DNA of 64,000 bases. Source: Patescibacteria group bacterium. Lineage in GTDB: Bacteria; Patescibacteriota; Minisyncoccia; Phycocordibacterales; PALSA-1337. The stretch lies in the NCBI GenBank assembly GCA_018970245.1, contig JAGWWT010000003.1, positions 3,519 through 67,518 on the forward strand, written 5' to 3'. Each line of letters begins with the position of its first letter. Within the stretch, counting starts at the first letter, position 1. Under the pieces are notes generated by a model that was given only the letters and a program-made list of their open reading frames with translations, searched no databases and was not told the origin of the DNA. Below, piece by piece: positions 4,056 through 27,413 of the stretch. The translations under genes and the position numbers were made by a program.

Positions 4056-4069
4056 GTGATTCTTGCTCT

Positions 4070-10312: not shown

Positions 10313-10318
10313 TTTCTA

Positions 10319-11721: not shown

Positions 11722-11872
11722 CGGCTATTTTGGGCGCTTTTACGCCGCAGAGGCTGGCTCACTTGCCTATGATCAAGCGCACGAGCTTGGCGATCACGAA
11801 TTTAGTGGATTTTGAGAGTATGTCGTACATGCTTTTGTGGAGAATGGGCCGATTGACCGTCTGGACCAGCGC

Positions 11873-12727: not shown

Positions 12728-12735
12728 GGAAATAT

Positions 12736-12764
12736 GGTTACAGGTTGCAAGTCGCAGGTTACAC
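12736..12764. repeat. heptad-array element, short locus B (rplW 3' end|rplB start), GTTNCAR units only
   Basis: ggttacaggttgcaagtcgcaggttacac. Overlaps the last codons and stop codon of rplW. Confidence 0.55.
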
Positions 12765-13214
12765 GAAGTCGATCTTTTCGCCAGCCTTCACGGTCACAAG
12801 CGCCTTGCGCATGCCCGCGACTGTCCCCTTCTTGCCTTTGACGAAGACGTTCTTCATGGGGGTGTTGATCATGGCCACCTTGACTGGGGTGACCTTGTAG
12901 ATGGCCTTTATGGCCTTGGCGACGCTGGCCTTGTTGGCGTCCTTGTTGACCTCGAACGTGTAGACGTTCGACTGCGAAAGAAGGCCGGATTTCTCAGTCA
13001 CGCGCGGCCGGATGACCACCGAGGCGGCAACGGTCTCTTCTACGACCTTGAGCTTCGGGACGGCAACAGCCTTGGTCTTGGATCCGGACTGGACGGCTGC
13101 CTTCTGCTTCTTGGCGCCCTTGGCCGGCGACTTCTTATCGGCGACAGCCTTGGCCGCCTCGGCGCCCTGCTCGAGCTTCTCGTCTTTGCGCTTTTTGAAA
13201 CCGAATATGGCCAT
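12759..13214 (-). CDS. rplW: 50S ribosomal protein L23 with Lys/Ala-rich N-terminal extension
   Basis: C-terminal region ...NVYTFEVNKDANKASVAKAIKAIYKVTPVKVAMIN matches L23. Confidence 0.85.
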   Translation of the reverse strand: MAIFGFKKRKDEKLEQGAEAAKAVADKKSPAKGAKKQKAAVQSGSKTKAVAVPKLKVVEETVAASVVIRPRVTEKSGLLSQSNVYTFEVNKDANKASVAKAIKAIYKVTPVKVAMINTPMKNVFVKGKKGTVAGMRKALVTVKAGEKIDFV

Positions 13215-13219
13215 GGCGG

Positions 13220-13879
13220 TTATTTCTTGGCGGTCAGAGCTTTTAGAGACTCTGCCGGATTGGCGACTATGAGGAACGTATGGTTCAGCACTGAAACGGG
13301 ATTGATGTTCCTGAATTCCTCGACGGCGACGTTCCCGAAATTGCGGAAGCTCTTCTCGACGGCCGCAGCCTTCTTGTCCAGGGCGATGATGGCGGCATTG
13401 GCCTTCTTCGTGCCCAACCTCTCATAGCCCTTTATCTTGGACAGAGAATCGAGGACGCCCTTGGCTTCCTTGGCTTTCGGCGCTTCGAACTTCACTGAAT
13501 CAAGGAATAGGATCTCGCCATCCTTGTACTTTTTAGAAAGGATCGTGAAAAGGGCCTTGGATTTGGCTTTGCGGTTGATCTTTCTGGAATAGTTCTTCTC
13601 GTTGCGAGGACCGTGCGCGACGCCGCCGCCGACCCAGATCGGCGAACGCGTCGAACCGTGGCGGGCGCGGCCTGTTCCCTTCTGCTTCCAAGGCTTCCTG
13701 CCGCCGCCGCGGACCTCACCGCGGGTCTTGGTATGGGCAACGGGCGTCCTAGAGTTTGAGTTCATGAGCCGCACGATCTCATGTACGAGATCGGCATTCC
13801 AAGGAACGTTGAAAATATCCTCGGGAAGAGAGATCTTGCCGGCTGATTTGCCCTGCTGGTTATAGACGGTCGCTTCCAT
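13220..13879 (-). CDS. rplD: 50S ribosomal protein L4
   Basis: METAVYNQQGK...KPWKQKGTGRARHGS. Start placed at the internal ATG; the ORF extends to 13924. Confidence 0.9.
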   Translation of the reverse strand: MEATVYNQQGKSAGKISLPEDIFNVPWNADLVHEIVRLMNSNSRTPVAHTKTRGEVRGGGRKPWKQKGTGRARHGSTRSPIWVGGGVAHGPRNEKNYSRKINRKAKSKALFTILSKKYKDGEILFLDSVKFEAPKAKEAKGVLDSLSKIKGYERLGTKKANAAIIALDKKAAAVEKSFRNFGNVAVEEFRNINPVSVLNHTFLIVANPAESLKALTAKK

Positions 13880-13957
13880 GGTCTCTGGATAAATAAAATA
13901 GGCTCTGTCGAGCGCGGAATGCATCTTAACAGAGCCGTCTTTTTAAGTCAACGGCTG

Positions 13958-14018
13958 GCGCGGTTTTCGCAAGGTCGAGCGCGGTTTTCGCAAGGTCGAG
14001 CGCGGTTTTCGCACGACA
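13958..14018. repeat. 21-bp tandem direct repeat, about 2.7 copies (gcgcggttttcgcaaggtcga)
   Basis: Read directly. Further small tandem duplications lie at 14264-14305 and 14306-14330. The ORF 13919..14329 (ARFSQGRARFSQGRARFS) is an artefact of these repeats. Confidence 0.8.
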
Positions 14019-14306
14019 TCTTGCTTTTTAGTGTTTTTTCACGACTAATTCATCAGAAATTTATCCCGACCATGTACAATGCGACAATGTATGCCTGGCG
14101 TGGCCGGGATGCTGCTGATGAAAAACTCTCTGTTAGCCAACTGAGACTCCGTGACAAACGACGGCTAAATATCGTACCGAATCACGGCTATAAATCGTCC
14201 GCAGTCTCAATTAGCTCACACCCCATTTTTAGACCATTGACCCTTGGATCACATAGGCCCACCCCCTTCGGCAAGCAGCCGCCCTTTGGCAAGCAGCCGC
14301 CCTTAC

Positions 14307-14684
14307 ATGACTCCTTACATGACTATTGATACCGAATACGATGATGGCCTAGATTATTTTCGGCTAGCGATCTGGGATCTGCGCCTGAAAGCCACGAGAA
14401 GCCGGCTCGCGATCCTTGAAGCGTTATATGACGAATACTCTCCACCAGAATTATCAGCGAAAGAGATCGTTGCAAAGCTTCGAACTGCTAGCCGAGCCTC
14501 GATATATCGACATCTAAGAACGTTCTTGAAGGCCTCGCTCATAGAGATCATCAGAAAAGGCCCTGACGGCTCGATCTATAGATGGTGCGATAGCAGACGC
14601 TCGATCACTCGTATCGCAAAGCCTCTATCGGGCTCTTCCGAGAGGCCTGCCGAGCTGGATAGCCGCCGAAAACCAGCCCGATGA
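14307..14684 (+). CDS. Fur-family-like winged-helix regulator, possibly truncated or degenerate (no C-terminal His/Cys metal site)
   Basis: LKATRSRLAILEALYDEYSPPELSAKEIVAKLRTASRASIYRHLRTFLKASLIE resembles the Fur N-terminal DNA-binding domain. The 3' end overlaps the convergent FtsX gene by 80 nt. Confidence 0.4.
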   Translation: MTPYMTIDTEYDDGLDYFRLAIWDLRLKATRSRLAILEALYDEYSPPELSAKEIVAKLRTASRASIYRHLRTFLKASLIEIIRKGPDGSIYRWCDSRRSITRIAKPLSGSSERPAELDSRRKPAR

Positions 14685-15846
14685 GAGCTGAGACGCCGAA
14701 ACCTAGAGCCGCGCCATCCCACGGGAAGACGAATTGCCAGCTCACATTCAGGCCCTTGGACAAGCCGATCGATATGAGATACGCGAGCGACGCGCCGAGA
14801 AGGATCCCGACCACCCCGCCGATCACCGTCAGGAGCACGGCCTCTAGGAGGAATTGCTTCAATATATCGCCGTCGCGCGCACCGAGAGATTTGCGCAAGC
14901 CGATCTCGCGGGTGCGTTCGGTCACAGCGACTAGCATTATGTTCATGATGCCGACTCCGCCTACGAATAGAGCGATCGAAGCGACGGCGACGAGGAAATA
15001 CGTGAGCGCGCTGGTGATCGTACCGAGCCTGTTCGCCAGGTCTTGTTGGGTCTGAACCGTGAAATCGTCCTTGCTAGGATCGGTGATCCCATGCGATTCG
15101 CGCAAAGTGAGCGTTATGTCGTCGGCCGTCACCGGGACATTCTGGTCGCTGTCGGCCTGGATGATGAGGCGGTTATAGTACTTCTGGCCGAGCACATAAT
15201 CCATGGCTGTCGTATAAGGCATGATTACCATGCTATCGAAATTGAAGAGCGAGCCGCCGCCCGAGGGAGGCAGGGTGCCGACGACTTTGAAATTGCGGCC
15301 ATTGAGCCTGATCTTCTGCCCTATCGGGTCCTGATTTGTGTCCGCGAAGAGATGCTCGACGACCTTGGAGCCGATGACGACGACGTCATTCTTGGACAGG
15401 ACATCGTCTGTCGTGAAGAAATCGCCGGCAGGATGGAGGTCGAATATCTGCGCCAAAAGGTCGCTGCCCCCGAAGATTGTCACCTGGTAGACGTCAGAAC
15501 CGTACGAAGCCGACGATGCGCCGATCACGGTGGGCATTATGGCCTGAAGATGCGGGACATTGGCCTTGTTCTCGAGGGCGGTCACATCCTGCGGCTTGAG
15601 GCTGTCGCTGTATAGAGCGCTCACATCAGAGGGTCCGGTCGGCTCGCGTCCAGGGATGACGGCGATGGTGTTGGTGCCTAGCCCTTGGACTTGGCCGAGA
15701 ATGAGCGCCTGCGCACCCGCGCCGAGCGATATCACCAGCATGATTGCCGTGATGCCTATGACGATGCCAAGAATGGTCAGCGCAGATCGAGAGCGGTTCG
15801 TCGAGAGCCCCGTGAGCGCCGTTTTGAATGTGTGCTTCCAGGTCAT
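14605..15846 (-). CDS. ABC transporter permease, MacB/FtsX family (periplasmic MacB domain + FtsX TM bundle)
   Basis: 413 aa with an N-terminal TM, large extracytoplasmic domain and C-terminal FtsX helices ending ...GGYPARQASRKSPIEALRYE. Confidence 0.85.
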   Translation of the reverse strand: MTWKHTFKTALTGLSTNRSRSALTILGIVIGITAIMLVISLGAGAQALILGQVQGLGTNTIAVIPGREPTGPSDVSALYSDSLKPQDVTALENKANVPHLQAIMPTVIGASSASYGSDVYQVTIFGGSDLLAQIFDLHPAGDFFTTDDVLSKNDVVVIGSKVVEHLFADTNQDPIGQKIRLNGRNFKVVGTLPPSGGGSLFNFDSMVIMPYTTAMDYVLGQKYYNRLIIQADSDQNVPVTADDITLTLRESHGITDPSKDDFTVQTQQDLANRLGTITSALTYFLVAVASIALFVGGVGIMNIMLVAVTERTREIGLRKSLGARDGDILKQFLLEAVLLTVIGGVVGILLGASLAYLISIGLSKGLNVSWQFVFPWDGAALGFGVSALIGLVFGGYPARQASRKSPIEALRYE

Positions 15847-15862
15847 CCGCCTAATTCTAGCA

Positions 15863-17164
15863 TTAATAACCAGCTGGGGGCTTTACTTTATGGCCTAACA
15901 TATCGAGATCGAGTGGATTAATTGCTGCTTTTCGAGGCAGCTTTCTGGCTATTATATACCCGATAATGATAAATATAGCCATAAGAATCGCCGCAAAGCG
16001 ATAGTTCATGGCATCAGCTTTCGGAAGATACGTCACAGCTAGTCCCCACGAAAGCGGACCCATGAAAGTGGCGAAACGTTCCATTAAAGTGTAATAAGTG
16101 AACGAACGGTTGAGGAAGCTCCTGGGTGTGAGGTGCAAAAGATACGCGCGGGTTATCGTCCAGATCGAACCGTACCACACGCCCATGACCAAGCAGGCGA
16201 TAATGAAAGCGATGAAGCCGTGAACGGCCGCGAATATCGGCAGTATCACCATCCAGCCAGCAAGATTCCAAAGCAAAACTTTCTTGAAACCGAATCTATC
16301 AGCTAGCCATCCGCTTATCGGAGCACCTATCACTCCAGCGAAGATGATAGAGATCAAGACGAGGTTTTGGGTGTTGCCGGTTATGAACATGACTTTATCC
16401 ATCCAGATCGGAAAATTATTCGAGGCCGTGGTAACGGCGTCGTTGAAAAAGAAGTACGCCAAAAGGAAGAGGCCTACTCCCGGCAGGGTGCACATTTTGA
16501 TGAATGATCCAACCACATCTCTATATTCTTTGACGATATCTATCTTCACGCAGACTTTTGTCGACTTCTCTTTGAAGAATATGAGCATCGGCAATGAAAA
16601 TATCAGGAACAAGATAGCTGCCGGCATCAAGGTGGCAGCTCGACCGTCCGGACCGATAAGGACTAGCGCGCCGCTGGCGACCGGCAAAGAGACTAGGAGC
16701 CCGAATATCTGACCGGAATAATCGCCGAACATTCCCCAACCCGATGCCAAGCCATGTTTTTCGTGAACAGCGATATCTTTGAGGAGAGGGTTGTAATAGG
16801 TATAACAGAAGAGATAAAAATATGAAGCTAGCGAAAAAGTCACGGCCGAGAGCACATAATAGGCTGGATAAATTTCAGCAATGAATCCTGTCAGAAAGAA
16901 AAAGATGAAAGAAAAGATAGTCGTCACACGCAAACCAGGCATATTCACATTGAGCTTATCAGCGACGGACCCGGCGACTGGAACAGTCAGCAAAAATAGC
17001 AGGCTAGCTCCGACAAATGTCATATTGAACCAGATGTCTGGCACGCCACGATCGACAACGAGCCATTCGGAGTAATACAAGAAGAAGACGATCAGAGCGA
17101 TAGCATGCCCAAAATTGTACATGCTCCATAGGACGAGGCGCTTGATGTCGAGGCCGGGTTTCAT
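15863..17164 (-). CDS. MFS-type transporter (12 TM)
   Basis: 433-aa highly hydrophobic protein with an MFS-like helix pattern and a central loop. Confidence 0.65.
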   Translation of the reverse strand: MKPGLDIKRLVLWSMYNFGHAIALIVFFLYYSEWLVVDRGVPDIWFNMTFVGASLLFLLTVPVAGSVADKLNVNMPGLRVTTIFSFIFFFLTGFIAEIYPAYYVLSAVTFSLASYFYLFCYTYYNPLLKDIAVHEKHGLASGWGMFGDYSGQIFGLLVSLPVASGALVLIGPDGRAATLMPAAILFLIFSLPMLIFFKEKSTKVCVKIDIVKEYRDVVGSFIKMCTLPGVGLFLLAYFFFNDAVTTASNNFPIWMDKVMFITGNTQNLVLISIIFAGVIGAPISGWLADRFGFKKVLLWNLAGWMVILPIFAAVHGFIAFIIACLVMGVWYGSIWTITRAYLLHLTPRSFLNRSFTYYTLMERFATFMGPLSWGLAVTYLPKADAMNYRFAAILMAIFIIIGYIIARKLPRKAAINPLDLDMLGHKVKPPAGY

Positions 17165-17165
17165 G

Positions 17166-17708
17166 TCACCTTAAGTGTCCAAGTCCCTCTAAAACAACTG
17201 CGTTGGCCAGACCTTTCAAGGACTCTCCTCTTGTGACGATTTTTGATTTCCTGATACCGCTACCTAGAACGACGATATCTGTGTCAACGACTGCCTTATC
17301 AATCAGCACAGGCCAATCATTTGGCAGTCCGATTCCCGTGATGCCTCCATAATCCATTTTCGTTAGTGCGACAGCTTCATCCATAGGCGCGAACGAGACT
17401 TTGCGGGCACCCAAATGCCTGCGCACCAATCCATTCACGTCTGCTTTCGTCGTCGCCAATATCATGCAGGCCGCATACCAATTCTTATCTGCTCTAGAAG
17501 CTTTTACCACGACGCAATTCACGGTCTGATTCGGCGCGATCTTATAGTATTCACAAAAGGCTGCTGTATCTGAATATTGTGGATCGATCTCGGCCACGCT
17601 GAATCCAGATGCATTTGAAAGTGACGATATAGCCGTATGGACGGTTTCAGCCAGAAGCTCGCGGTGATCGACAGCTGGTATGAGTTTTAATTCACCAAGA
17701 GAGTTCAT
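17166..17708 (-). CDS. YbaK/ProX-family aminoacyl-tRNA deacylase domain protein
   Basis: ...RKVSFAPMDEAVALTKMDYGGITGIGLPNDWPVLIDKAVVDTDIVVLGSGIRKSKI matches the YbaK/EbsC fold signature. Confidence 0.55.
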   Translation of the reverse strand: MNSLGELKLIPAVDHRELLAETVHTAISSLSNASGFSVAEIDPQYSDTAAFCEYYKIAPNQTVNCVVVKASRADKNWYAACMILATTKADVNGLVRRHLGARKVSFAPMDEAVALTKMDYGGITGIGLPNDWPVLIDKAVVDTDIVVLGSGIRKSKIVTRGESLKGLANAVVLEGLGHLR

Positions 17709-17710
17709 GT

Positions 17711-18310
17711 CTAATCAAGAATAACAGTAACTTTTTCCAGCCAATATCGCAAAGGTTTTTCATTTGTGACTAGGAATGCCCTGCCGCCAAGCTTTTCAAA
17801 GTATCCGCAGGTTGTTGGGGAATCATCTATAAGAACCGAACTCCCAATCGTCGAACCAATCCTTTCAATGACATCAAGGTAAGCTTTCCCTTCATTGTCG
17901 TTTTTTGAATTTCCACGCGAATGAGAAGACTCTATGAGATCAAAATGTTCATCCAACTTAAGAGTTGGAACGGTGAATCGCTCGAAGCAGTCCATATTAT
18001 CCGTCATAAGAACGGCTATGAATTTGCTCCTCAAAGAATCGATTGTTTTCAGGTCAGTCTCATCGACTTTCATAGTCTTGCAATCTGAAACAAATAGATT
18101 CCAGAGCATTTCATAGTCAATGCCAAGTTCCTCCGACAGAAAACGATTAATATCTTCTGAAGAATATTTATTCCTCATCCAATCGTTTACTCTCTGTTTG
18201 TCGGAAAACAGAAGTTCTTGAATTTTCACATTATTTGTCTTATCTAAGCTTCTCCAAAACCTATCGAAACAAAGCGTACCGTCGAAGTCTACGAATAAGA
18301 CCGGCTTCAT
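17711..18310 (-). CDS. HAD-superfamily hydrolase (AT-rich, likely horizontally acquired)
   Basis: Motif I, FVDFDGTLC (DxDGT). The gene is markedly AT-rich relative to its flanks. Confidence 0.6.
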   Translation of the reverse strand: MKPVLFVDFDGTLCFDRFWRSLDKTNNVKIQELLFSDKQRVNDWMRNKYSSEDINRFLSEELGIDYEMLWNLFVSDCKTMKVDETDLKTIDSLRSKFIAVLMTDNMDCFERFTVPTLKLDEHFDLIESSHSRGNSKNDNEGKAYLDVIERIGSTIGSSVLIDDSPTTCGYFEKLGGRAFLVTNEKPLRYWLEKVTVILD

Positions 18311-18355
18311 GACTTAAGCATACTATCAAGCGTCGCCATCTGCTAATATTCTCAT

Positions 18356-19516
18356 ATGAAAAGAATCCACCCTGACGTCATTAGGCTCGGCCTTGTCAGC
18401 TTCCTCACGGATGTGAGCTCCGAAGCCATATTCTCTGTCTTCGCGGTCTTCTTCACGACGATAGCTGGTGCGTCGGCGGCATTGCTCGGAGTCGTCGAAG
18501 GCTTGTCTGATTTCTCTGCGTCATCTCTGGACTATGTTTCCGGTTGGATGTCGGACAAGACAGGCAGACGTAAATCGCTAGCTGTCGTTGGCTATGGATT
18601 TTCGACTCTGGCTAAATTCTTCCTGCTCGTTGCCAACTCGATCGCTTCTCTGTCTTTGTTCAGGATAGTCGAGCGCCTCGGCAAGAGCTTCCGCGGACCG
18701 CCGCGCGACGCCTGGCTAGCGGATGTCGCCGCCGAAGCCGATCGCGGATTCTCATTCGGCGTTCATAAAGCGATGGACAAAGCCGGCGCCGTTCTGGGCC
18801 CTGTATTAGCCTTCCTGCTTTTGGCCTGGCTCGGCCAAGATCTGCACGGATTCAAGGTGCTATTCATCTGCACGGCGATCGTAGCAGTCTTCGCTGTACT
18901 TTTCCTTCTCGTCATGAAGGACCGCCCCGGCGCGCCGCACCAGCGCGACAATATCTTCAAAGCCTGGCGATTCCTGTCCCCCGGCTTCAAGCTCTACCTC
19001 ATCCCAGCCGGAATATTCTCGCTCGCCTATTTCAGCTTCGGCTTCCTGCTCCTCAAGGCCTATGAGGTTGGGTTCTCGATCGCCGACGTCATCCTTCTGT
19101 ATGCCCTTTTCAATGTGGCCTTCGTGATAGCATCGATCCCGATCGGCAGCTTAGGAGACAGGATCGGCCGTCACTGGCTGATCAAAATGGAATATGCCAT
19201 CTATGCTCTCATGTCTTTAGGCTTCATCTTCGCCACGGATAAATGGGAGATCGTCGGGCTTTTCATAATCTTCGGCGTCTTCTACTCCATAGACGAGGCT
19301 CAGACGAAGGCCTTCATCGCCGACCTAGAGCCGGAACGCCGCGGCAGCGCCATCGGCCTCTATAATTTCTTCTCCGGCATCGTCTACCTGCCGGCTTCGC
19401 TCATCGCAGGCGCGCTTTGGACTGTTGATCCGTCTTACTCGTTCGTGTTCGCTTTGATAGTCTCAGTCATCGCTCTTCTCATATTCGCCGTCATGGATAG
19501 GAGGATCCTTCGTTGA
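18356..19516 (+). CDS. MFS transporter
   Basis: 386 aa, 12 predicted TM helices, MFS loop motif GWMSDKTGRRKSL. Confidence 0.75.
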   Translation: MKRIHPDVIRLGLVSFLTDVSSEAIFSVFAVFFTTIAGASAALLGVVEGLSDFSASSLDYVSGWMSDKTGRRKSLAVVGYGFSTLAKFFLLVANSIASLSLFRIVERLGKSFRGPPRDAWLADVAAEADRGFSFGVHKAMDKAGAVLGPVLAFLLLAWLGQDLHGFKVLFICTAIVAVFAVLFLLVMKDRPGAPHQRDNIFKAWRFLSPGFKLYLIPAGIFSLAYFSFGFLLLKAYEVGFSIADVILLYALFNVAFVIASIPIGSLGDRIGRHWLIKMEYAIYALMSLGFIFATDKWEIVGLFIIFGVFYSIDEAQTKAFIADLEPERRGSAIGLYNFFSGIVYLPASLIAGALWTVDPSYSFVFALIVSVIALLIFAVMDRRILR

Positions 19517-19565
19517 CATTTTCCTGGTCCGGAGTAGTTTGTCACCAGAACAGAAAGGTCAAAAT

Positions 19566-20261
19566 ATGAGAAATGTGATCATCGCCGGAAAAGGCAACAT
19601 GGCGCAGCTCTTCACGACGGAGCTCCAACATATGGGGTACGACGTCTATGATTTCGAGCATCTTCCTGATGGCTACGTGGCCGGATTGGACAGTTCCGAA
19701 ACAGTCGGGTTGCACGTGGGAAGCGGCAAGGATCTGGACCGATTCGTGGCCAGATGCGCCGATCTCGAAATACCAGTCCTCCAAGGATCGACTGGCCAAA
19801 AGATAGACGAGGCCTGGCCTGGCTTGGTGGTCAACGCAGATAACTTCGCCTTGCCGATCCTGCGCGTGATCCAGCTCCTGTCCAAGATCGCCGGTAGCCT
19901 CGGTCCCTCGCAAGGCTTGAACATGAAAGCTGGCCTGGCCGAATCCCATCAGTGGTCAAAGAAATCTGTGCCTGGCACAGCCAAGCGGATGGCTGCTGCG
20001 ATCGGCGTCGAAGAATCGGACATAAAGTCCGTGCGCGATCCTGACCTGCAGATGGCCATGGGAGTGCCAGCCGATGCGCTAGATGCTCACGGCCACCACT
20101 TCCTGACTTGGACAGGCTTCGGAGTGCAGATCCAACTTACCACGAGGATCAACGGCCGCGGCGCCTATTTCGAAGGCGGCCTGCACTTGCTGCAGATACT
20201 GCACGACAGACGCCATGAGAGAGGGGTGCACGACGTCCTCGACTTCCTCGACCGGAAGTGA
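19566..20261 (+). CDS. dapB: 4-hydroxy-tetrahydrodipicolinate reductase-like (DapB family)
   Basis: The DapB signature region ESHQWSKKSVPGTAKRMAAAIG matches the (L/I)HHxxKxDAPSGTA block, with N-terminal NAD-binding VIIAGKGNMAQ. Start placed at the ATG MRNVIIAG; the ORF extends to 19539. Confidence 0.6.
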   Translation: MRNVIIAGKGNMAQLFTTELQHMGYDVYDFEHLPDGYVAGLDSSETVGLHVGSGKDLDRFVARCADLEIPVLQGSTGQKIDEAWPGLVVNADNFALPILRVIQLLSKIAGSLGPSQGLNMKAGLAESHQWSKKSVPGTAKRMAAAIGVEESDIKSVRDPDLQMAMGVPADALDAHGHHFLTWTGFGVQIQLTTRINGRGAYFEGGLHLLQILHDRRHERGVHDVLDFLDRK

Positions 20262-20311
20262 GGCGGGGCGCTCCAGATGACAGTTCCAAGCTCGCAGCGA
20301 TGCGGGCGTTT

Positions 20312-21043
20312 TTATTTCACAAAGAAAGTCGCTCTGACCGTCACCATGACGTTCTTTTCGATGGATGAGGTGTCGTATTGGCCGTAATCGGAGACATCTA
20401 TCGAGTTCGGCGCAAGGACCTGGACGACGCCGCTCGAAGCCGCCTTGAGAGCGCCTACCCTTGTGCCGGCGCTGCTGGCGATCTGCTCTGCCCTGTTCCT
20501 CGCATCCGTGAGCGCGGCGCCGAGGAGAGAGACGCGCAAGGCGGCCAGCTTCGAAGAGAAATACTGCGGCTGGTCGGCCATGACCAAGATACCCTTCGAA
20601 GTCAGCGCCTCGGTCGATTTCGAGAGCTTGTCTATGATCTGCGGATCGTCGGACTGGACAGTCACTCTCTGGCTCACCTCGAACTGCCTCGGTCCGCCGC
20701 TTTGGTCGGTCTTGTAGTTATACTGCTGCATCGTCATCGGCGCGGCTATGGTTATGTCAGCGTCCGGGATCCCGTTATCGGAAAGGAACTTCTTGGCTGC
20801 CGCAAGATCCGAAGCGAGCCCTGAATATGCGCCCTCCAAGTAGCCTTCCGTGGCCTGGCGCGACAGCGTGAATGACCATGAAGCATTGTCGGCTGAGACC
20901 TTTTGGGAAGCCGACCCTGTGACCACCAGGGTGTTATCGAAGCTGCGGACCGTGATAAAGGCGTAGACGCCTATGAGGGACGCGACCACGAGGGCTGCGC
21001 CCAAAATGATCGCCGGAGCGATCAAAGAGTTCTTATTTTTCAT
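20312..21043 (-). CDS. SIMPL/DUF541-family periplasmic protein (YggE-like), N-terminal TM anchor
   Basis: 243 aa with TM anchor and SIMPL-like pattern (...TVRATFFVK C-terminus). Confidence 0.5.
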   Translation of the reverse strand: MKNKNSLIAPAIILGAALVVASLIGVYAFITVRSFDNTLVVTGSASQKVSADNASWSFTLSRQATEGYLEGAYSGLASDLAAAKKFLSDNGIPDADITIAAPMTMQQYNYKTDQSGGPRQFEVSQRVTVQSDDPQIIDKLSKSTEALTSKGILVMADQPQYFSSKLAALRVSLLGAALTDARNRAEQIASSAGTRVGALKAASSGVVQVLAPNSIDVSDYGQYDTSSIEKNVMVTVRATFFVK

Positions 21044-21061
21044 GAGCAGATTGTACCACCT

Positions 21062-21802
21062 TCACTTGACGAATTCATCATCGGCAGAAAGCCGGCTATG
21101 CACACGCGTGTCGCTCTCCATCTCGCCGTCCATGAGACGGATTATGCGCTCGGCGTGGTCTGCGGTAGAGGTCTCGTGGGTGATGAGGACTATCGTCTTC
21201 CCGTGCTCCTCATTCAGGTGCTGCATGATGGCCATGACGGTCTTGCCGGATTTGCTGTCGAGATTGCCGGTCGGCTCATCCGCGAAGATGACCTCTGGAT
21301 CAGTCACCAGCGCGCGAGCGATGGCCACTCTCTGGCGCTCGCCGCCGGAGAGCTCAGACTGGCCGTGATGCATGCGATGGGCCAGACCGACCGATTCGAC
21401 TGCTTCGCGCGCGCGATCGTCCCATTCATGCTCTGGTATCTTCGAATAATAGAGAGGCAGTTTGACGTTGTCGATGACGCTCGTCCGCGGCAGAAGGTTG
21501 AAGGCCTGGAAGACGAAGCCGATTTCCCTGTTGCGCAGATCGGCAAGCTCGTCTGAAGTGTATGAGGTCACATTCTTGCCGTTGAAACGGTAGCTGCCAG
21601 AGGTCGGCTCGTCGAGAAGGCCCAAAAGGTGCAGAAGGGTCGATTTCCCGCTCCCTGATGGCCCCATGATGGCCAAGAATTGGCCGCGCGGCACGTCGAA
21701 GCTGACCTTATCCAGAGCGACAGTCGGCGTCTCGCTGCCGTCTCCGTAGGCCTTGCGGAGATTCTTGACGGAGATGACGCTTTCGGCTTCTTTGGCAGTC
21801 AT
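21062..21802 (-). CDS. ABC transporter ATP-binding protein (MacB/LolD-type)
   Basis: Walker A GPSGSGKST; signature LSGGERQRVAIARAL; Walker B IFADEPTGNLD. Confidence 0.9.
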   Translation of the reverse strand: MTAKEAESVISVKNLRKAYGDGSETPTVALDKVSFDVPRGQFLAIMGPSGSGKSTLLHLLGLLDEPTSGSYRFNGKNVTSYTSDELADLRNREIGFVFQAFNLLPRTSVIDNVKLPLYYSKIPEHEWDDRAREAVESVGLAHRMHHGQSELSGGERQRVAIARALVTDPEVIFADEPTGNLDSKSGKTVMAIMQHLNEEHGKTIVLITHETSTADHAERIIRLMDGEMESDTRVHSRLSADDEFVK

Positions 21803-22404
21803 TTGAATAGGGCTTTGATGTCTCCGGCGAGCTCGGGAAATTCCGAACCAGTGAAATGTCCTCGTCCTTCGAACTTCTTTAATATCGCATTCGGCAAGCG
21901 CTCTTTGTAAGATTCAGCATCTTTGAAGTCGACATAGGGATCATCCGTGCTGTGGTATATGGTGATCCTGCCTCCCTGTTCAGAGAGCAGATCGAGGCTT
22001 TTTGGCAGGATAAAATCTGCCATATCCTTCTCATTCGGATCGTTCGCAAATGGCGCAGCCACCAATAATACGGCCTCCAGTCTCATTTTCAATTTATTTT
22101 CCGACAGATACTTGGCTAAGAAGATGCCTCCCAATGAATGCCCCACGAGCACCGAGTTGTCTTTAATCTGCGGCACGATCTTATCGAACCAGATCTTCCA
22201 CTCGAGGTACTTGGCATTAGCACTGTTCGGCATTCTTGGCGTATATACTAGAAAGTCAGTACCTAGCAATGCTTCTAATGTTTCTCGCCACCTCTTCCTT
22301 CTGGCATCTTCAAGGTCGAATTCCTCCGCCTTCAGGTCGGCGATGTACTTCTCGTATGTTTCCGGCGTATCGCCGCCGTGGATGACGATGACTTGGCGCT
22401 TCAT
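21799..22404 (-). CDS. alpha/beta-fold serine hydrolase (RBBP9/YdeN-like)
   Basis: Nucleophile elbow GHSLGG; about 200 aa. Confidence 0.6.
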   Translation of the reverse strand: MKRQVIVIHGGDTPETYEKYIADLKAEEFDLEDARRKRWRETLEALLGTDFLVYTPRMPNSANAKYLEWKIWFDKIVPQIKDNSVLVGHSLGGIFLAKYLSENKLKMRLEAVLLVAAPFANDPNEKDMADFILPKSLDLLSEQGGRITIYHSTDDPYVDFKDAESYKERLPNAILKKFEGRGHFTGSEFPELAGDIKALFK

Positions 22405-22416
22405 GATGTCAGTATA

Positions 22417-22674
22417 TCACTTATACAATTCTGGATGCGTGCCTATCGCGACGATAAGGACACTGCCCTTCTCCTTATAATAGATCGCCCGATAGTTACC
22501 AGTGATGTTGATGCTTCGGCAGCCAGAATATGCCCGTTCGACAGAATGATTGTTCAAAATAACGTGATAGGGTTCACGCAGGAACAGTGCAATACGCTCG
22601 TCAAACTGCTCCCGAAGCCTTGGGGACAATTTCTTCAATTTCTTTTTTGCGTCGGAGTGAAGAAAAACGTGCAT
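22417..22674 (-). CDS. relE: type II toxin, RelE/ParE superfamily (YafQ-like mRNA interferase)
   Basis: 85 aa; C-terminus GCRSINITGNYRAIYYKEKGSVLIVAIGTHPELYK matches the RelE/YafQ pattern. It lies 3 nt downstream of a DinJ-like gene. Confidence 0.7.
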   Translation of the reverse strand: MHVFLHSDAKKKLKKLSPRLREQFDERIALFLREPYHVILNNHSVERAYSGCRSINITGNYRAIYYKEKGSVLIVAIGTHPELYK

Positions 22675-22677
22675 CTC

Positions 22678-22977
22678 CTAATTATCCAGCCATTTTTTCA
22701 TCTGTGCAACTGACGTGAAGGCCGGGGAGATGTTCTTACCCTTTTTGAAGTCGTTGATCGCGCGCTCTATTTGCCTTCGGGTGCGGTCATTGAAATGCTC
22801 TTCTTCGGATACGTCGACATTGAACCTCTTTTCTGCATAGGCTCTAAGGCTCAGCTTTAAAACAGCGGAAAGCGGAATGCCTTCGCTTTTGGCTCTTTTC
22901 ATTGCCTGTTCCTTGATCTTGCTATCGACATTGATGATAACAGTTGATGTCATGTTTTTGTATTTATTTTTGGCCAC
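22678..22977 (-). CDS. relB: type II antitoxin, DinJ/RelB family
   Basis: TSTVIINVDSKIKEQAMKRAKSEGIPLSAVLKLSLRAYAEKRF resembles the DinJ N-terminal RHH-like region. Start is 22977 or 22953. AT-rich. Confidence 0.65.
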   Translation of the reverse strand: MAKNKYKNMTSTVIINVDSKIKEQAMKRAKSEGIPLSAVLKLSLRAYAEKRFNVDVSEEEHFNDRTRRQIERAINDFKKGKNISPAFTSVAQMKKWLDN

Positions 22978-22986
22978 GTCTGACTA

Positions 22987-23024
22987 GACGCATATATATC
23001 TTATATATTACAAATATATATGTC
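22987..23024. promoter_or_regulatory. imperfect inverted repeat (GACGCATATATAT - N14 - ATATATATGTC) upstream of the TA operon; candidate autoregulatory operator/promoter
   Basis: Read directly at 22987-23024. It is AT-rich with TATA-like boxes and sits 10-50 bp upstream of the antitoxin start. Confidence 0.4.
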
Positions 23025-23480
23025 AATCATTCCGGCCCCTGAAGCTCAGGATGTAATCGAGCAGTTCGGACAGATTGCATCTGGCTAATCCGATCGCCGT
23101 ATCGGCCGCACCGTAATAGACATAAAGCATGTCGCCGATCACTATTGCGCCTTCAGGAAAAGTCACATTGGGCACAAGACCGGATGTTTCATATTCCGTG
23201 GCCGGCTGCAATAGATATCCTGGGACTCTTGCGATCAGTTTGTCCGGTTCATCGAGGTCGAGGAGGCTGCACCGATCGTCCAAGAGTCTGACATGGATTC
23301 ACCCGAGTAAATGAGAAGCCAGCCTTTATCGGTTCTGAACAGCATCCTAACTAGATCTTTATCCTGAACGACGGATGGGTTGAAGACGGCTTTGCCTTCC
23401 CATCCGACGTCTGGTCTTGGGATCAAAATCGGCTTAGGTTCTTCTTCGCTCGGATAACGCTCTAGATGGAATTTTTTCAC
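23023..23480 (-). pseudogene. glycoside hydrolase family 130 (mannoside phosphorylase-like) remnant, frameshifted and truncated
   Basis: Two ORFs in different frames carry the GH130 N-terminal block (KAVFNPSVV...GWLLIYSGES) and C-terminal block (LYVYYGAADTAIGLARCNLSELLDYIL). Together about 160 aa versus the roughly 300 aa expected. Confidence 0.6.
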
Positions 23481-23489
23481 GATTGAATC

Positions 23490-25013
23490 TTACTGCTTTA
23501 TGTACGTCACCACCTTGTCGCCCACATTCAAGCCGGAAGTGATCTCGGTCGTGCCGTCGGAACCCTTGAGGCCGATCGTCACGGGAACGGAAGAATATGT
23601 CTTGCCGTCGGCGGAAACTAGCCTTACTGACTTGGCGCCGTTATCGTCGGTTATAGCGCGCGATGGGACTTCAAGAACATCTGCCGCCTGGTGCGTGAGG
23701 ATATCCAGGTTTGCGGTCATCCCAGAACGGATGCGTGCATCTGGCGTGACAAAATACAGCGTGACCTTGTAGGTCGGAACTCCCTCGATGACCGTCTCTG
23801 CAGGGTCGATCATAGCTACCTGCGACGGAAAATCGGTATCGGAACCGTAAGCGTCCAGTGTCGTCGAGGCCAGATCGCCGACCGCTACTTTGGCGATGTC
23901 CGCTTCCGGGACATACGCTTCTATCTTGAATGAGCTGTTCTGGACCGCAAATCCGGAAGAGCCTGCAGCCGCGAACTCCCCTACTGACGGATCGGCTCTA
24001 GTGACGATGCCGTCGATGGGCGAAGTCAATGTATCCTGATCGAGCACGGCTTTCGCCTGAGCCACTTTGGCCGCCTGGGCCGCTATAGACTGCTCTGAAT
24101 TGCCAGAGAGCTTCAGGTTATAGTCGGATAGCGCCTGGTCATATGAAGCCTGCGCGGCAGTCAGGCTGGATTGGGCGGTCGTCACGGCGTCTATCGCGGA
24201 ATTCAGAGCTGAAAGCGCCGAGTTCATGGAAGCCACATCGGAATCGATGGCTGACTGCGATAGCCCGGAATTGCCGGTGCTCATAGCATTGACGACCCCT
24301 GAAAGGTCAAGCATGAAGGACTTGATCTTCGACAGATACCCGGCGGCGTCGGCAAGGAGGCTGGCCGCGGACGTAGATGAGGCCTGGGAGAGCTCGGACG
24401 ACCACTGATTGAATACGCTGCTCACCGCCACGCGCTCGTTGTTCAGCAGATTCTGGTGCACGGTCGAGTCGACGCGGATGTTTATGGCTGGATTGGCGCT
24501 CTGCGGATTGGAGAAGAAGATATCGGCGTAATTGACCTCTGCGCCTTGGGCTTTGGCATAGGCGTCATGGAAGGAGTTCACGGCCGCGTCTTTGGCGCTG
24601 TCCAGAGCGGTCTTGGACGAAGCTACGTCGGATTCCTGGACAGCGAGCTCTGCGGGGGTGAGAGAGCGCGACATATCCGCCAGAGTCGCCTCAGCGCTCG
24701 CCAGCGCGGCCCTGTCGGCAGAATCGTCCAACGAAGCTATCTTATCGCCTTTCTTGATTTGGTCGCCGACTTTGACATATATCTCGGATATGACGCCGCT
24801 CTTCTCGAAGGCCAAGTCCGCTTTGCCTATAGGAGATACGGATCCAGTGACGGAGACGAGCTCAGTCACGGTGCCTATCTGGGCGGAAGCCGCATCGAAG
24901 TTCGGGGGTTGATTGCTGCTCCTGACCGCGGAAATGACGACGATCAGCACGATTATGACGGCTATAGCGATGAACCACCAGCTCTTTAGGAACCTCCAGC
25001 GGGATTTTTTCAT
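23490..25013 (-). CDS. HlyD/MacA-family periplasmic adaptor (membrane fusion protein) with long coiled-coil
   Basis: N-terminal TM, biotinyl-lipoyl-like half (IASLDDS...; TLTSPIDGIV), long Ala/Ser-rich helical hairpin and a C-terminal beta domain. Start at the ATG MKKSRWRF. Confidence 0.8.
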   Translation of the reverse strand: MKKSRWRFLKSWWFIAIAVIIVLIVVISAVRSSNQPPNFDAASAQIGTVTELVSVTGSVSPIGKADLAFEKSGVISEIYVKVGDQIKKGDKIASLDDSADRAALASAEATLADMSRSLTPAELAVQESDVASSKTALDSAKDAAVNSFHDAYAKAQGAEVNYADIFFSNPQSANPAINIRVDSTVHQNLLNNERVAVSSVFNQWSSELSQASSTSAASLLADAAGYLSKIKSFMLDLSGVVNAMSTGNSGLSQSAIDSDVASMNSALSALNSAIDAVTTAQSSLTAAQASYDQALSDYNLKLSGNSEQSIAAQAAKVAQAKAVLDQDTLTSPIDGIVTRADPSVGEFAAAGSSGFAVQNSSFKIEAYVPEADIAKVAVGDLASTTLDAYGSDTDFPSQVAMIDPAETVIEGVPTYKVTLYFVTPDARIRSGMTANLDILTHQAADVLEVPSRAITDDNGAKSVRLVSADGKTYSSVPVTIGLKGSDGTTEITSGLNVGDKVVTYIKQ

Positions 25014-25040
25014 AGAAAAGTTGCATATATTGTAGCACAA

Positions 25041-25060
25041 ACGAAAAGGCCCTTGCGGGC
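25041..25060 (-). terminator. possible weak intrinsic terminator after rplC (GCCC-GCAA-GGGC hairpin + U-tract)
   Basis: Minus-strand RNA ...GCCCGCAAGGGCCUUUUCGUUUG, 40 nt downstream of the rplC stop. Confidence 0.35.
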
Positions 25061-25102
25061 TCAGCCCACAGGGTCTTTCGGATATCGCCAGGCGGCAAGA
25101 GC

Positions 25103-25708
25103 CTAGCCGACGATCTCGACGAGCGTTCCCCTTCTGCCCGGGACAGCGCCCGAAACATATAAAATATTGTCTTCAGCGTCTATGTGAGCGACTTTGAGAT
25201 TCTTTACGGTAACGCGGTCCGATCCCATGCGGCCAGCCATTCTGGTGCCTACAGGAACGCGGTTGCGCAAGCCTCCGCCGATCGAGCCCGGCTCGCGCTC
25301 GGAATGCTTCTGGCCGTGTGTGCGAGGGCCGCCACGGAAGCCGTGGCGTTTGACCACGCCCTGGAAGCCCTTGCCCTTGGAGATAGCGCTGACCTGGACA
25401 GTATCGCCGGCCTTGAATTGGTCGATGCCGACCTTGTCGCCGACTTTGAGCGTCGGAGCGTCGACCCTGAATTCCTTGAGGGAAGCGAAGCTGCCGAGCT
25501 CTTTCAGGTGCCCGCGGAGGGGCTTGTTGATCCGGCGAGGATTGCGAGCTCCCTCTCCGACCTGCACAGCCTCATATCCGTCGTTCTCCTTGGTCCGGAC
25601 CTGGGTGACGACATTGCCGCGCACAGCCACAGCAGTGACCGGCACGGCATTGCCTGCCTCGTCATAGATCTGCGTCATATTCAGTTTGCGTCCGAGGATG
25701 AATTTCAT
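25103..25708 (-). CDS. rplC: 50S ribosomal protein L3
   Basis: MKFILGRKLNMTQIYDEAGNAVPVT... Start at ATG 25708. The ORF-track start at 25729 is a GTG inside the upstream repeat. Confidence 0.92.
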   Translation of the reverse strand: MKFILGRKLNMTQIYDEAGNAVPVTAVAVRGNVVTQVRTKENDGYEAVQVGEGARNPRRINKPLRGHLKELGSFASLKEFRVDAPTLKVGDKVGIDQFKAGDTVQVSAISKGKGFQGVVKRHGFRGGPRTHGQKHSEREPGSIGGGLRNRVPVGTRMAGRMGSDRVTVKNLKVAHIDAEDNILYVSGAVPGRRGTLVEIVG

Positions 25709-25716
25709 GGGATTAA

Positions 25717-25766
25717 GGTTACAGGTCACAGGTTACAGGTGTCACCTGCTACCTGTTACTTGCTAC
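25717..25766. repeat. heptad-array palindromic element, locus C (rpsJ 3' end|rplC)
   Basis: ggttacaggtcacaggttacaggtgtcacctgctacctgttacttgctac. Overlaps the rpsJ stop codon. Confidence 0.75.
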
Positions 25767-26164
25767 ATCATTTTGACATCTATGTTGACTCCAGATGGCA
25801 GTGATAAATTTGTAAGCGCTTCGATCACTTTCGGGTTCGGGTTGATGATATCGATCAGGCGCTTGTGGACGCGCATCTCGAACTGCTCGCGCGAGTTCTT
25901 GTCGATGAATGACGAGCGGTTGACAGTGTATTTCTTGATCTCCGTCGGCAGCGGGACAGGGCCGTGGACTTCGGCATCATAACGGGCGGCCGTATCCATG
26001 ATCTGCTTCAGGCTGGCATCCAGGATCTTGTGCTCGTAGGCGCGGACGCGGATGCGCAGATGCGGAGCTTCGCCTGCCGCCTTGGCCTTCCTGGCGCGCG
26101 GAGCGGCCTTGGGCTTGACGCTTGAAGGAGTCTCTTTCTTAGCTGTGTCTTTGTGGGTTGGCAT
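25763..26164 (-). CDS. rpsJ: 30S ribosomal protein S10 with about 35-aa Lys/Ala/Pro-rich N-terminal extension
   Basis: Core LRIRVRAYEHKILDASLKQIMDTAARYDAEVHGPVPLPT; ATG at 26164. Confidence 0.88.
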   Translation of the reverse strand: MPTHKDTAKKETPSSVKPKAAPRARKAKAAGEAPHLRIRVRAYEHKILDASLKQIMDTAARYDAEVHGPVPLPTEIKKYTVNRSSFIDKNSREQFEMRVHKRLIDIINPNPKVIEALTNLSLPSGVNIDVKMM

Positions 26165-26170: not shown

Positions 26171-26222
26171 GGTGACAGGTTACAAGTATCAGGTTTCAAC
26201 CTGCTACCTGTCACCTGCAACT
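26171..26222. repeat. heptad-array palindromic element, locus D (tuf|rpsJ junction)
   Basis: ggtgacaggttacaagtatcaggtttcaacctgctacctgtcacctgcaac. Confidence 0.75.
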
Positions 26223-26225: not shown

Positions 26226-27413
26226 TTACGCGATGACCTTCGTGACGACGCCGGCGCCGACGGTCTTGCCTCCTTCGCGGACGGCGAAGCGCTGCTTGTC
26301 TTCGAGAGCGACCGGAGCGACGAGCTTGACCTTGAAGGTCACGGTGTCGCCAGGCATGACCATCTCGACGCCCTCCTTGAGGGTGACTTCGCCGGTCACG
26401 TCGGTCGTGCGGATATAGAACTGCGGCTTGTAACCGGTGAAGAACGGGGTGTGGCGGCCGCCTTCCTCCTTCTTCAAGACATAGACTTCAGCCTCGAATT
26501 CGGTGTGCGGCTTGACGGAACCCGGCTTGGCCAAGACCTGGCCGCGAGAGACGGCATCCTTGGCCGTGCCGCGGAGGAGCAATCCGGCGTTGTCGCCAGC
26601 GATGCCTTCCTTGAGCTGCTTGTTGAACATCTCGATGCCGGTGACGACGGTCTTCGAGGTGTCCTTGAAGCCGACGATCTCGACTTCCTCGTTCAGAGTG
26701 ATCTTGCCGCGCTCGATACGGCCTGTGACGACGGTGCCGCGGCCTTCGATCGAAAAGATGTCCTCGATAGGCATGAGGAACGGCTTGTCGGTCTCGCGGA
26801 TCGGGTCTGGGATATATGTGTCGAGAGCATTCATGAGCTCGCCGATCTTGGCGACCCATTCCTCCTTGCCTTCCATGGCGCCAGTGGCTGAGCCGCGGAT
26901 GACCGGGGCATTCTTGCCGTCGTAATGATTCTTTGTGAGAAGCTCACGCACTTCCTCCTCGACGAGGTCGATGAGGTCCTTCTCCGGGACGAGGTCGCAC
27001 TTGTTAAGGAAGACGATGATCTTCGGGACGCCGACCTGGTAAGCCAGGAGGACGTGCTCGCGAGTCTGGGGCATGACGCCGTCGGTGGCGGATACCACGA
27101 GGATGGCTCCGTCCATCTGGGCGGCGCCGGTGATCATGTTCTTGATATAGTCGGCGTGGCCAGGGGCGTCGATGTGGGCGTAGTGGCGCTTGTCGGACTC
27201 GTATTCTACGTGCGACAAGGCGATCGTCACCGTCTTAGTGGCGTCGCGGACTGTTCCGCCCTTGGTAATCTCGGCGTAGGCCTTCTCTTTGGCCATGCCC
27301 TTCTTGGCCTGGACCGCGACGATCGCGGCGGTCAAGGTCGACTTGCCGTGGTCGATGTGGCCGATGGTGCCGACGTTTACGTGCGGCTTCGTGCGATTGA
27401 ATTCTGCTGCCAT
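26226..27413 (-). CDS. tuf: elongation factor Tu
   Basis: 395 aa, [21 protein letters not shown]; unmistakable. Confidence 0.98.

Follow-up and report, generated by a model that had tools for sequence, protein, structure and literature searches.

In the genome studied here, a pump cassette that one patescibacterial clade carries within its ribosomal protein genes has probably swollen from about 4 kb to 11 kb by nested, stepwise accretion of further genes, the three pump genes being kept and a restart promoter coming to lie before rplD. The window, that is the whole stretch of DNA that was analysed, comprises 64,000 nt of contig JAGWWT010000003.1 (GCA_018970245.1, forward-strand positions 3,519-67,518), and the block in question is the 11,223 bp of non-ribosomal genes that separate rplC (ribosomal protein L3) from rplD (L4). 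The adjacency of rplC and rplD is among the most conserved gene neighbourhoods of bacteria. The host genome is a member of the Patescibacteria, of the Paceibacteria/'Taylorbacteria' kind, and its L3 protein is 75-83% identical to L3 of metagenome-assembled genomes (MAGs) carrying those labels. An earlier sequence-only reading of this DNA had correctly placed the split of the S10 operon between rplC and rplD, and had listed the genes correctly, but had taken the block for one accessory island. Comparison with relatives appears already to contradict this view, as about 40% of the block, namely the genes for a HlyD-type adaptor, an ABC ATPase and an FtsX-type permease (hlyD, abc and ftsX), is orthologous to a cassette found in the ribosomal cluster of relatives too, in two loci at the very same junction. 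Both the pump and the downstream ribosomal genes appear to be still functional.

The arrangement itself is not in doubt. The same block is present in two independent NCBI MAG contigs, L081 (GCA_028865675.1; 99.1% nucleotide identity, covering S10 to S8) and L082 (GCA_028866085.1; 98.6%, covering a PG_binding/PKD gene upstream of EF-Tu to the second of two MFS transporter genes, MFS2). Since two other public assemblies share the arrangement, the block structure is real and fixed in the species and is not an assembly artefact.

The fetched comparison loci bear three-digit labels such as L007, whereas L3, L4, L23 and L2 are ribosomal proteins. Besides the window, seven distinct relatives (eight loci, L164 duplicating L167) hold the pump cassette inside the ribosomal cluster, in operon orientation and at one of two junctions. 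L007 and L008 share the L3-L4 position with the window: here L3 is followed by HlyD-ABC-FtsX, a 182-aa membrane protein and L4, the 4.3-kb insert lying wholly in operon orientation and ending, in L007, 48 bp before L4. In at least four loci, L009, L015, L083 and L167, the same three pump genes are found at the L2-S19 junction, beside small membrane proteins and an opposite-strand histidine kinase. That histidine kinase is kept alone at L2-S19 in L007, L008 and the window, where it accounts for a gap of 1.2 kb. The window ABC protein is 74-79% identical to its cassette orthologues and FtsX 74-78%, while HlyD is 51-63% identical to the orthologues in L007, L008, L009 and L015 and 74% identical over a partial match in L083.

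In the window the pump genes extend over 10.4 kb and are interspersed with 11 further genes or remnants of genes, of which two lie on the opposite strand. The judgement that such scattering is atypical is borne out, about 75 related loci keeping HlyD-ABC-FtsX together: the three are contiguous in L007, L008, L009, L015 and some 60 other related loci, and in a metagenome scan with FtsX essentially all loci holding the three genes have them adjacent. The sole exception to contiguity among the relatives is L167/L164, in which ABC and FtsX are split. In L167 (ENA ERZ27245399 k141_2426546, region 573-4726), and likewise in L164, the gap holds a UMF1-type orthologue, 69% identical, of the first MFS gene of the window (MFS1), together with a low-GC gene for 291 aa with no Pfam match. 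Because these loci are also split at this point by an orthologous MFS gene, the ABC-FtsX junction looks to be a repeated or inherited insertion point. The L167 cassette, which lies at L2-S19, also carries VIT1-like, aminotransferase and Orn/DAP decarboxylase genes. Immediately upstream of the cassette of L009, in its L2-S19 gap (12935-15421), lie a reverse transcriptase gene (RVT_1, 4e-23), a bAvd-like gene overlapping on the opposite strand and a 207-aa open reading frame (ORF); the group looks like a diversity-generating retroelement.

A second line of evidence comes from the DNA preceding rplD. A 31-nt promoter-like element, TTGACTTAAAAAGACGGCTCTGTTAAGATGC (13921-13951, minus strand), is situated 41 nt upstream of the L4 start. 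It can be parsed into a -35 box and a TG-extended -10 box 17 nt apart, and behind it come a small hairpin and a U-tract. Another copy, differing by 2 mismatches, precedes S19 (10770-10800), which makes two copies in the window against 0.00 expected. In L003, L007, L008, L009, L024, L083 and L167 the element is found 37-47 nt upstream of S19; before L4 it is restricted to the window, L007 and L008. Over the 63 nt upstream of L4 the window and L007/L008 are 81% identical, including 29 nt past the promoter core. The arms of the hairpin that follows the element (for example GCTC-GACA-GAGC; window 13880-13920 and 10670-10769) vary between species with their pairing largely kept, and the U-tract and start codon come next; the hairpin upstream of S19 is seen also in the alignment of the seven relatives just listed. 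It is a candidate structure that could be a leader attenuator or a ribosomal-protein binding site.

The element contributes to a tentative division of the region into transcription units. One predicted unit would run S10-L3-hlyD-GH130 remnant-antitoxin-toxin-hydrolase-abc-SIMPL and end opposite a terminator-like hairpin (20290-20307) that follows the plus-strand pair of MFS2 and a DapB_C-like gene; HAD-YbaK-MFS1-ftsX would form a second minus-strand unit, and L4-L23-L2 would be transcribed from the 13921-13951 element. The sequence-only reading had held that the parts of the pump are not co-transcribed. This applies to ftsX, which is cut off from abc and hlyD by two plus-strand genes and cannot have a transcript in common with them, but probably not to hlyD and abc themselves, which share the strand of S10-L3 and could well belong to one transcript.

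Composition reveals the block as a mosaic of at least five segments. The GC content at third codon positions (GC3) of host genes in the window is about 0.70-0.80, and host-like values are found for HlyD (0.69), ABC (0.74), FtsX (0.74), SIMPL (0.750), MFS2 (0.69) and the DapB_C-like gene (0.70). Two blocks are low in GC3: 15863-18310, with MFS1 (0.57), YbaK (0.46) and HAD (0.41), and 21799-22977, with the hydrolase (0.584), the toxin (about 0.50) and the antitoxin (0.57). Together these blocks total 3.6 kb, the other 7 kb or so being host-like, and the GH130 remnant (23023-23480) adjoins the second. A compositional contrast with the flanks, one trace by which an acquired island was to be recognised, is thus present in the two low-GC3 blocks, which look foreign, and missing from the pump, SIMPL, MFS2 and DapB_C-like genes. 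The pump genes match cassettes of the same clade. The nearest homologues of MFS1 (72%) and HAD (57%) all come from Patescibacteria, which makes other members of that phylum, lower in GC, the probable donors of these genes. The HAD-YbaK-MFS block was considered as a travelling unit and rejected, the nearest HAD (57%) and one MFS homologue (63%) lying in unrelated contexts. Most cargo genes have no counterpart within 10 kb of L3 in 80 relatives; for SIMPL, MFS2 and the DapB_C-like gene, none of 160 loci has a copy closer than 10 kb to either L3 or FtsX. Nor did the hallmarks of a mobile element that the sequence-only reading had envisaged, an integrase or flanking direct repeats, come to light: Pfam and NCBIfam detect no integrase, recombinase or transposase domain in any ORF of the block, no repeat pair brackets 13880-25102, and the window contains no tRNA genes.

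A history that would account for this arrangement begins with the state seen by comparison, in which the clade carries a contiguous hlyD-abc-ftsX cassette in its ribosomal cluster, in the same orientation, at L2-S19 or L3-L4. In the window lineage, and probably also in that of L007/L008, the cassette would then have come to L3-L4, accompanied by a copy of the S19-type promoter/leader that now stands before L4 and would let L4-L23-L2 be transcribed independently of upstream sequences. The order seen in L007 is exactly what would result if the segment L4-L23-L2-cassette-promoter had been duplicated in tandem and its redundant halves then lost. Composition and comparison together indicate that the cassette subsequently took up more DNA at both of its internal junctions: hlyD and abc were parted by a hydrolase gene, a ParE/RelB-type toxin-antitoxin pair and a GH130 gene that survives as a remnant, and abc and ftsX by SIMPL, the opposite-strand MFS/DapB_C-like pair and the low-GC HAD-YbaK-MFS block. 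At the ftsX end a Fur-family gene would have been added, which is now truncated. To judge from the selection acting on them, the three pump proteins would still be produced, by way of two transcription units or more, and once translated would come together as a MacB-type exporter with an adaptor ring and two copies each of ATPase and permease. Such a pump would work in the manner of the MacAB-like pumps of Gram-positive bacteria, which operate without an outer membrane, and from the membrane surface it would expel peptides or other amphiphilic compounds.

By its proteins the pump is a further, new member of the MacB type. The permease matches MacB (PDB 5gko) at 1.2e-61 over residues 5-411 and 5xu1_M at 2.9e-37, and carries an FtsX transmembrane domain together with a large extracytoplasmic MacB_PCD domain. 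For the ABC ATPase the best solved relative is 5xu1_A (2.3e-62), with MacB 5lil at 1.1e-59, and the Walker A, signature, Walker B and H-loop motifs can be read in the translation as GPSGSGKST, LSGGERQR, IFADEPTGNLD and ITHE. The HlyD adaptor matches MacA (PDB 4dk1 and 5nik) at 1e-16 to 1e-18 and scores 152.8 with NCBIfam TIGR01730, above the cut-off of 94.9. All three ORFs are full length and their domains are intact. Comparison of three strains (window, L081 and L082) gives 25 synonymous and 0 non-synonymous differences in FtsX, 26/2 and 24/0 in ABC, and 3/0 and 18/4 in HlyD, with exact protein matches between strains despite 25-26 nucleotide differences; the corresponding figure for MFS1 is 12/9. 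Given full-length ORFs, intact motifs and strain differences that are almost only synonymous, the pump is likely to be functional. Divergence between the strains is patchy, with tracts of 4-6%, almost all synonymous, in ftsX, abc and rplC and none in L2, L23, S10, YbaK, HAD or the toxin-antitoxin genes, a pattern suggestive of either frequent homologous recombination among members of the population or a consensus built from mixed strains. As the 4-6% tracts look like recombination between diverged lineages, the synonymous-only pattern would mean a long period of purifying selection.

On the strength of the matches to solved structures (MacB, 5xu1_A, 5xu1_M and MacA), the closest known system appears to be the split, outer-membrane-free MacAB-like pump of Gram-positive bacteria. 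Streptococcus pneumoniae, which has no outer membrane, encodes such a pump in Spr0693-0694-0695 (PDB 5xu0/5xu1), with the adaptor, the ABC ATPase and the MacB_PCD plus FtsX permease as three separate proteins. Spr0694 is the best solved match of the window ATPase and the permease matches 5xu1_M over its full length; the match of the adaptor to 5xu0 is weak, the window protein being longer (507 aa), with about 150 unmatched residues in mid-protein. Furthermore, the pneumococcal genes form one operon, in contrast to their dispersal over 10.4 kb in the window. The MacAB-TolC systems of E. coli and Acinetobacter (PDB 5nik, 5gko and 5lil) resemble the window proteins in the transmembrane/periplasmic part of MacB (permease, 1e-53 to 1e-61), in MacA (adaptor) and in the N-terminal domain of MacB (ATPase), but MacB fuses ATPase and permease, which in the window are encoded by separate, non-contiguous genes. 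No gene resembling TolC turned up in the ORFs examined, among which no systematic search was made; the Gram-positive form has no such exit duct. The YknXYZ system of B. subtilis likewise combines a split ATPase and permease with a YknX-type adaptor in a monoderm. However, similarity to it is much weaker than to MacB or Spr0694/0695 (a weak Pfam BSH_YknX match on the adaptor, and 2e-7 for the YknZ periplasmic domain, 5f9q), a counterpart of YknW is missing, and the context in the window is a ribosomal operon.

How unusual the position of the block is can be gauged from a survey of spacers in 80 species-level loci around L3. The L3-L4 spacer exceeds 500 bp in two of the 77 species-level relatives in which both genes are seen, namely L007 and L008, whereas L2-S19 exceeds 500 bp, reaching 7.6 kb, in 29 of 53 species-level genomes. 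S10-L3 does so in 8 of 72, among them L070, whose inserted genes encode an amino-acid kinase and an AIPR abortive-infection-type protein, and no surveyed locus does so at EF-Tu-S10, L4-L23, L23-L2, S19-L22 or L22-S3. Within the surveyed Paceibacteria group S19 appears to start its own transcription unit. Two further relatives have L3 followed by unrelated cargo. In L014 more than 10 kb pass without L4, encoding phosphomannomutase, cobalamin adenosyltransferase, a large serine recombinase, CsoR and DUF305; in L002 the genes are SWIB and VanY, and L4 is out of reach. The recombinase of L014 (region 10108-17988) comprises Resolvase, Recombinase and Zn_ribbon domains and the CsoR/DUF305 pair is of copper type; an integrative element thus occupies the junction that holds the block in the window. 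All five L3-L4 interruptions (window, L007, L008, L014 and L002) fall within the 18 or so nearest relatives. The L3-L4 junction therefore appears to be a soft spot in the clade of the window, rare overall, and the ribosomal cluster of this one Paceibacteria clade shows itself to be a recurrent landing zone. We found no paper on interruptions of the S10 operon in Patescibacteria or the candidate phyla radiation (CPR). One paper names macB among the horizontally transferred and genomic-island genes of the defence category in Patescibacteria in general. Interrupted translation-gene clusters have been published which, going by the abstracts, resemble the present case in that inserted non-ribosomal genes separate a conserved cluster, but those interruptions lie between operons, while the window has its break within the S10 operon, at rplC-rplD, together with a second copy of an internal promoter-like element.

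Trees were used to ask whether the window shares a single relocation event with L007/L008. A neighbour-joining tree of ribosomal proteins, of limited resolution, joins the window with L007/L008 in 125 of 200 bootstraps and so weakly favours one event. Several observations weigh against the history as we have set it out. Neighbour-joining of the pump genes places the window with L009/L015 and apart from L007/L008 in 200 of 200 bootstraps, a result that fits a single shared relocation only if the pump genes of L007/L008 evolved fast or recombination occurred; support for the window with L007/L008 in the ribosomal tree amounts to only 62%. The MFS gene between ABC and FtsX in L167, whose cassette occupies the other junction, implies that this insertion predates the stage assumed for it, happened more than once or arrived by recombination. 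Promoter, leader and terminator were called by pattern matching, with scan totals not above shuffled expectation, and of these calls only the conserved 31-nt element was used as promoter evidence. Finally, the absence of strain diversity from the low-GC blocks was tried as a sign of recent acquisition and rejected: it is not specific to them, L2, L23 and S10 being equally invariant. A cassette that reached L3-L4 in the window independently of L007/L008, the soft spot being used twice and cassette and S19-type promoter copied from L2-S19 on separate occasions, would explain the affinity of the pump genes for the L2-S19-type loci L009/L015, and the unrelated cargo in L002 and L014 shows the junction to be a recurrent target. 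We nevertheless regard independent origin as unlikely, for past the promoter core a further 29 nt of the L4 leader are conserved in the window, L007 and L008 alone, and the ribosomal proteins lean weakly the same way.

It is improbable that the entire 11 kb came by horizontal transfer as one island, whether a mobile element or what is left of one, and landed between rplC and rplD. The two low-GC blocks, the toxin-antitoxin pair and the pseudogene inside would suit such an origin, as would the lack of most cargo genes near L3 in relatives and the acceptance of foreign DNA by the junction in L014 and L002. Against this stand the mosaic composition, the lack of integrase, transposase, tRNA and flanking repeats, the host-like GC3 of the pump genes and their identity (74-79% for ABC and FtsX, 51-74% for HlyD) to genes in the same cluster of relatives, and the occurrence of the 4.3-kb core alone at this junction in L007 and L008. 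We give equally little credence to the idea that the scattered pump is on its way to loss, its genes being relics like the neighbouring GH130 and Fur remnants. The neighbours are indeed decaying, MFS1 is under relaxed constraint and two opposite-strand genes separate FtsX from ABC, but the pump ORFs are complete with domains and motifs intact, the differences between strains in FtsX (25/0) and ABC (26/2) are almost only synonymous, and the start of ABC appears translationally coupled to the preceding hydrolase gene, with whose stop it shares 4 bp. A chimera produced by assembly or binning, joining unrelated contigs inside a ribosomal operon, can practically be dismissed. The genomes are metagenome-assembled, and patchy strain divergence can arise from a mixed-population consensus; however, the same order recurs in L081 and L082, which between them cover both borders of the block, and L007 and L008 independently have an interrupted L3-L4 junction. 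Stepwise growth on a resident cassette is accordingly the history that we prefer.

The features of the block and of the adjoining ribosomal genes are collected in Table 1. Pfam supports every gene that the sequence-only reading had named, at the coordinates it gave, with two of its descriptions in need of revision.

Table 1. Genes and other features of the block between rplC and rplD and of its flanks, in the minus-strand order of the operon (window coordinates).
Feature	Position	Strand	Evidence
EF-Tu	26226-27413	-	gene table
S10	25763-26164	-	gene table, Pfam
rplC (L3), last ribosomal gene ahead of the interruption	25103-25708	-	Pfam Ribosomal_L3
HlyD/MacA-family membrane-fusion adaptor	23490-25013	-	Pfam HlyD_D23, HlyD_3, Biotin_lipoyl_2
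GH130 remnant	23023-23283 (C-terminal fragment) and 23235-23480 (out-of-frame N-terminal piece)	-	Pfam
Antitoxin, RelB/DinJ-like	22678-22977	-	RelB_DinJ TIGR02384, 20.6 bits (cut-off 45.65)
ParE/RelE toxin	22417-22674	-	Pfam ParE_toxin, 30.1 bits (above cut-off 23); NCBIfam RelE_StbE, 27.0 (cut-off 27.9)
Alpha/beta serine hydrolase, low GC	21799-22404	-	Pfam Ser_hydrolase, 1.6e-11
MacB-type ABC ATPase	21062-21802	-	Pfam ABC_tran, 1.1e-35
SIMPL/DUF541 protein	20312-21043	-	Pfam SIMPL, 2.1e-21
Weak DapB_C-like protein, 231-240 aa	19539/19566-20261	+	Pfam DapB_C, 7e-4 (under cut-off)
MFS transporter (MFS2)	18356-19516	+	Pfam MFS_1, 3e-38
HAD hydrolase	17711-18310	-	Pfam
YbaK-like tRNA-editing domain (YbaK/tRNA_edit) protein	17166-17708	-	Pfam
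MFS transporter, UMF1/ATG22-like (MFS1)	15863-17164	-	Pfam
MacB/FtsX-type permease	14605-15846	-	Pfam MacB_PCD, 2.7e-42; FtsX, 4e-23
Fur-family winged-helix gene, apparently truncated	14244/14319-14684	+	Pfam FUR, HTH_20
Divergent spacer, L4 to Fur remnant, with three tandem duplications	13880-14318		Tandem Repeats Finder
rplD (L4), first ribosomal gene past the interruption	13220-13879	-	Pfam Ribosomal_L4
L23	12759-13214	-	Pfam; gene table of L081
L2	11873-12727	-	gene table of L081

Transcription entering the block from L3 would meet the adaptor gene 89 nt downstream, across a spacer that holds a weak hairpin. The GH130 gene that follows is a pseudogene remnant in two overlapping frames with a large internal deletion; its 86-aa piece covers only positions 249-317 of the 320 in the Glyco_hydro_130 profile, and its 81-aa piece has no match. 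Antitoxin and toxin genes show a type II toxin-antitoxin layout, the antitoxin ORF ending 3 nt before the toxin start. The first description to be revised is that of a DapB-like reductase: the plus-strand gene shows a weak C-terminal resemblance only, with 20.1 bits for Pfam DapB_C (cut-off 27), no DapB_N match in Pfam, and NCBIfam scores of 29 bits for dapB_plant (cut-off 294.55) and 15.5 for dapB (cut-off 122). HAD, YbaK and MFS1 are tightly packed directly upstream of FtsX, the gaps from HAD through to ftsX measuring 1-16 nt.

The second concerns the supposed Fur-like regulator, a term that overstates a gene with the winged-helix half but not the metal-binding one. The Pfam FUR match (25.5 bits, cut-off 23.1) extends over profile positions 4-75 of 121 only. 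A word-indexed homology search for full-length relatives returned only the protein itself, and an exhaustive search of 1.84 billion representatives yielded two distant, marginal Fur proteins, aligned to residues 15-91, both of which continue into an HHH..C..CxxC metal-binding half that the window protein lacks. The gene is convergent with ftsX and overlaps its 3' end by 80 bp, the last 27 or so residues being read antisense to ftsX, and it shows 3 synonymous and 4 non-synonymous differences between strains. We read it as having been truncated at a rearrangement breakpoint. Beyond it, the left edge of the block is rich in short tandem duplications, as the sequence-only reading had remarked, three perfect or near-perfect ones being found: 21 bp x2.7 (13958-14013, 100% match), 18 bp x2.3 (14264-14304) and 12 bp x2 (14301-14324). 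No comparable tandem repeats occur in the other 12 kb scanned, the 21-mer has 2 matches in the window against 0.01 expected, and the spacer 13880-14318 is identical in strain L081. The L4 ORF spans 13220-13924, and its real start is at 13879 (MEATVY), matching relatives.

Elsewhere in the window, the canonical S10 order (S10-L3-L4-L23-L2-S19-L22-S3-L16-L29-S17) is broken twice, by the 11.2 kb at L3-L4 and the 1.2 kb at L2-S19, and the str-S10-spc cluster as a whole is broken at 5457-6905, 10831-11721 (the histidine kinase at L2-S19), 27606-34086 and 36391-38348. Between L5 and S14 lies an opposite-strand YkuD/Peptidase_S11 gene; between EF-G and EF-Tu there are three genes, two of them for PG_binding proteins of 1190 and 614 aa; and between S7 and EF-G there are small genes that include those for a low-GC ORF6N-domain protein and a YtxH-like protein. 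S10 (133 aa) and L23 (151 aa) have Lys/Ala-rich N-terminal extensions of about 35 and 65 residues, respectively, before the Pfam domain. Relatives have similar, poorly conserved extensions, and L23 identity is 49-69% with the nearest loci and falls to 36% in more distant ones.

Heptad-repeat hairpins, with ACCTGYN in one arm and its complement in the other, occupy short spacers just upstream of ribosomal gene starts (9141-9188, 12741-12759, 25715-25762, 26176-26217, 38917-38964, 39417-39464 and 57309-57371), the spacers concerned being S3-L16, L23-L2, S10-L3, EF-Tu-S10, S12-S7 and that upstream of S12. The heptad has 26 matches against 0.95 expected, and the three spacers tested gave folding z-scores of -3.5 to -5.9. 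Among the 171 fetched loci, repeated copies are present only in L081 and L082, of the same species, a single match in L150 being probably due to chance; the strains differ by exactly one 7-nt unit at 25749. An Rfam scan of the window for ribosomal leaders and other RNAs returned nothing at gathering thresholds, the heptad hairpins included.

Our analysis overturns no current understanding, but it would feed comparative work on the evolution of operons in streamlined genomes. The rplC-rplD neighbourhood has been broken with no loss of downstream ribosomal genes, apparently by means of a copied internal promoter/leader, and a three-part pump has been pulled apart while all of its genes remain under strong purifying selection, which bears on the role of operon contiguity in the assembly of complexes. 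A bolder interpretation, which we hold to be doubtful, is that the pump is no passenger and is wired into ribosomal-protein transcription on purpose. It is raised because seven relatives have the cassette inside the cluster, because hlyD follows L3 at such short distance, and because a conserved promoter/leader copy precedes each downstream segment. If this were true, expression of the pump would track ribosome synthesis or translation stress, and the arrangement would constitute a ribosome-coupled defence of host-dependent bacteria against translation-targeting or membrane-active compounds. A portable promoter-leader module would then be what lets the most conserved of bacterial operons tolerate cargo.

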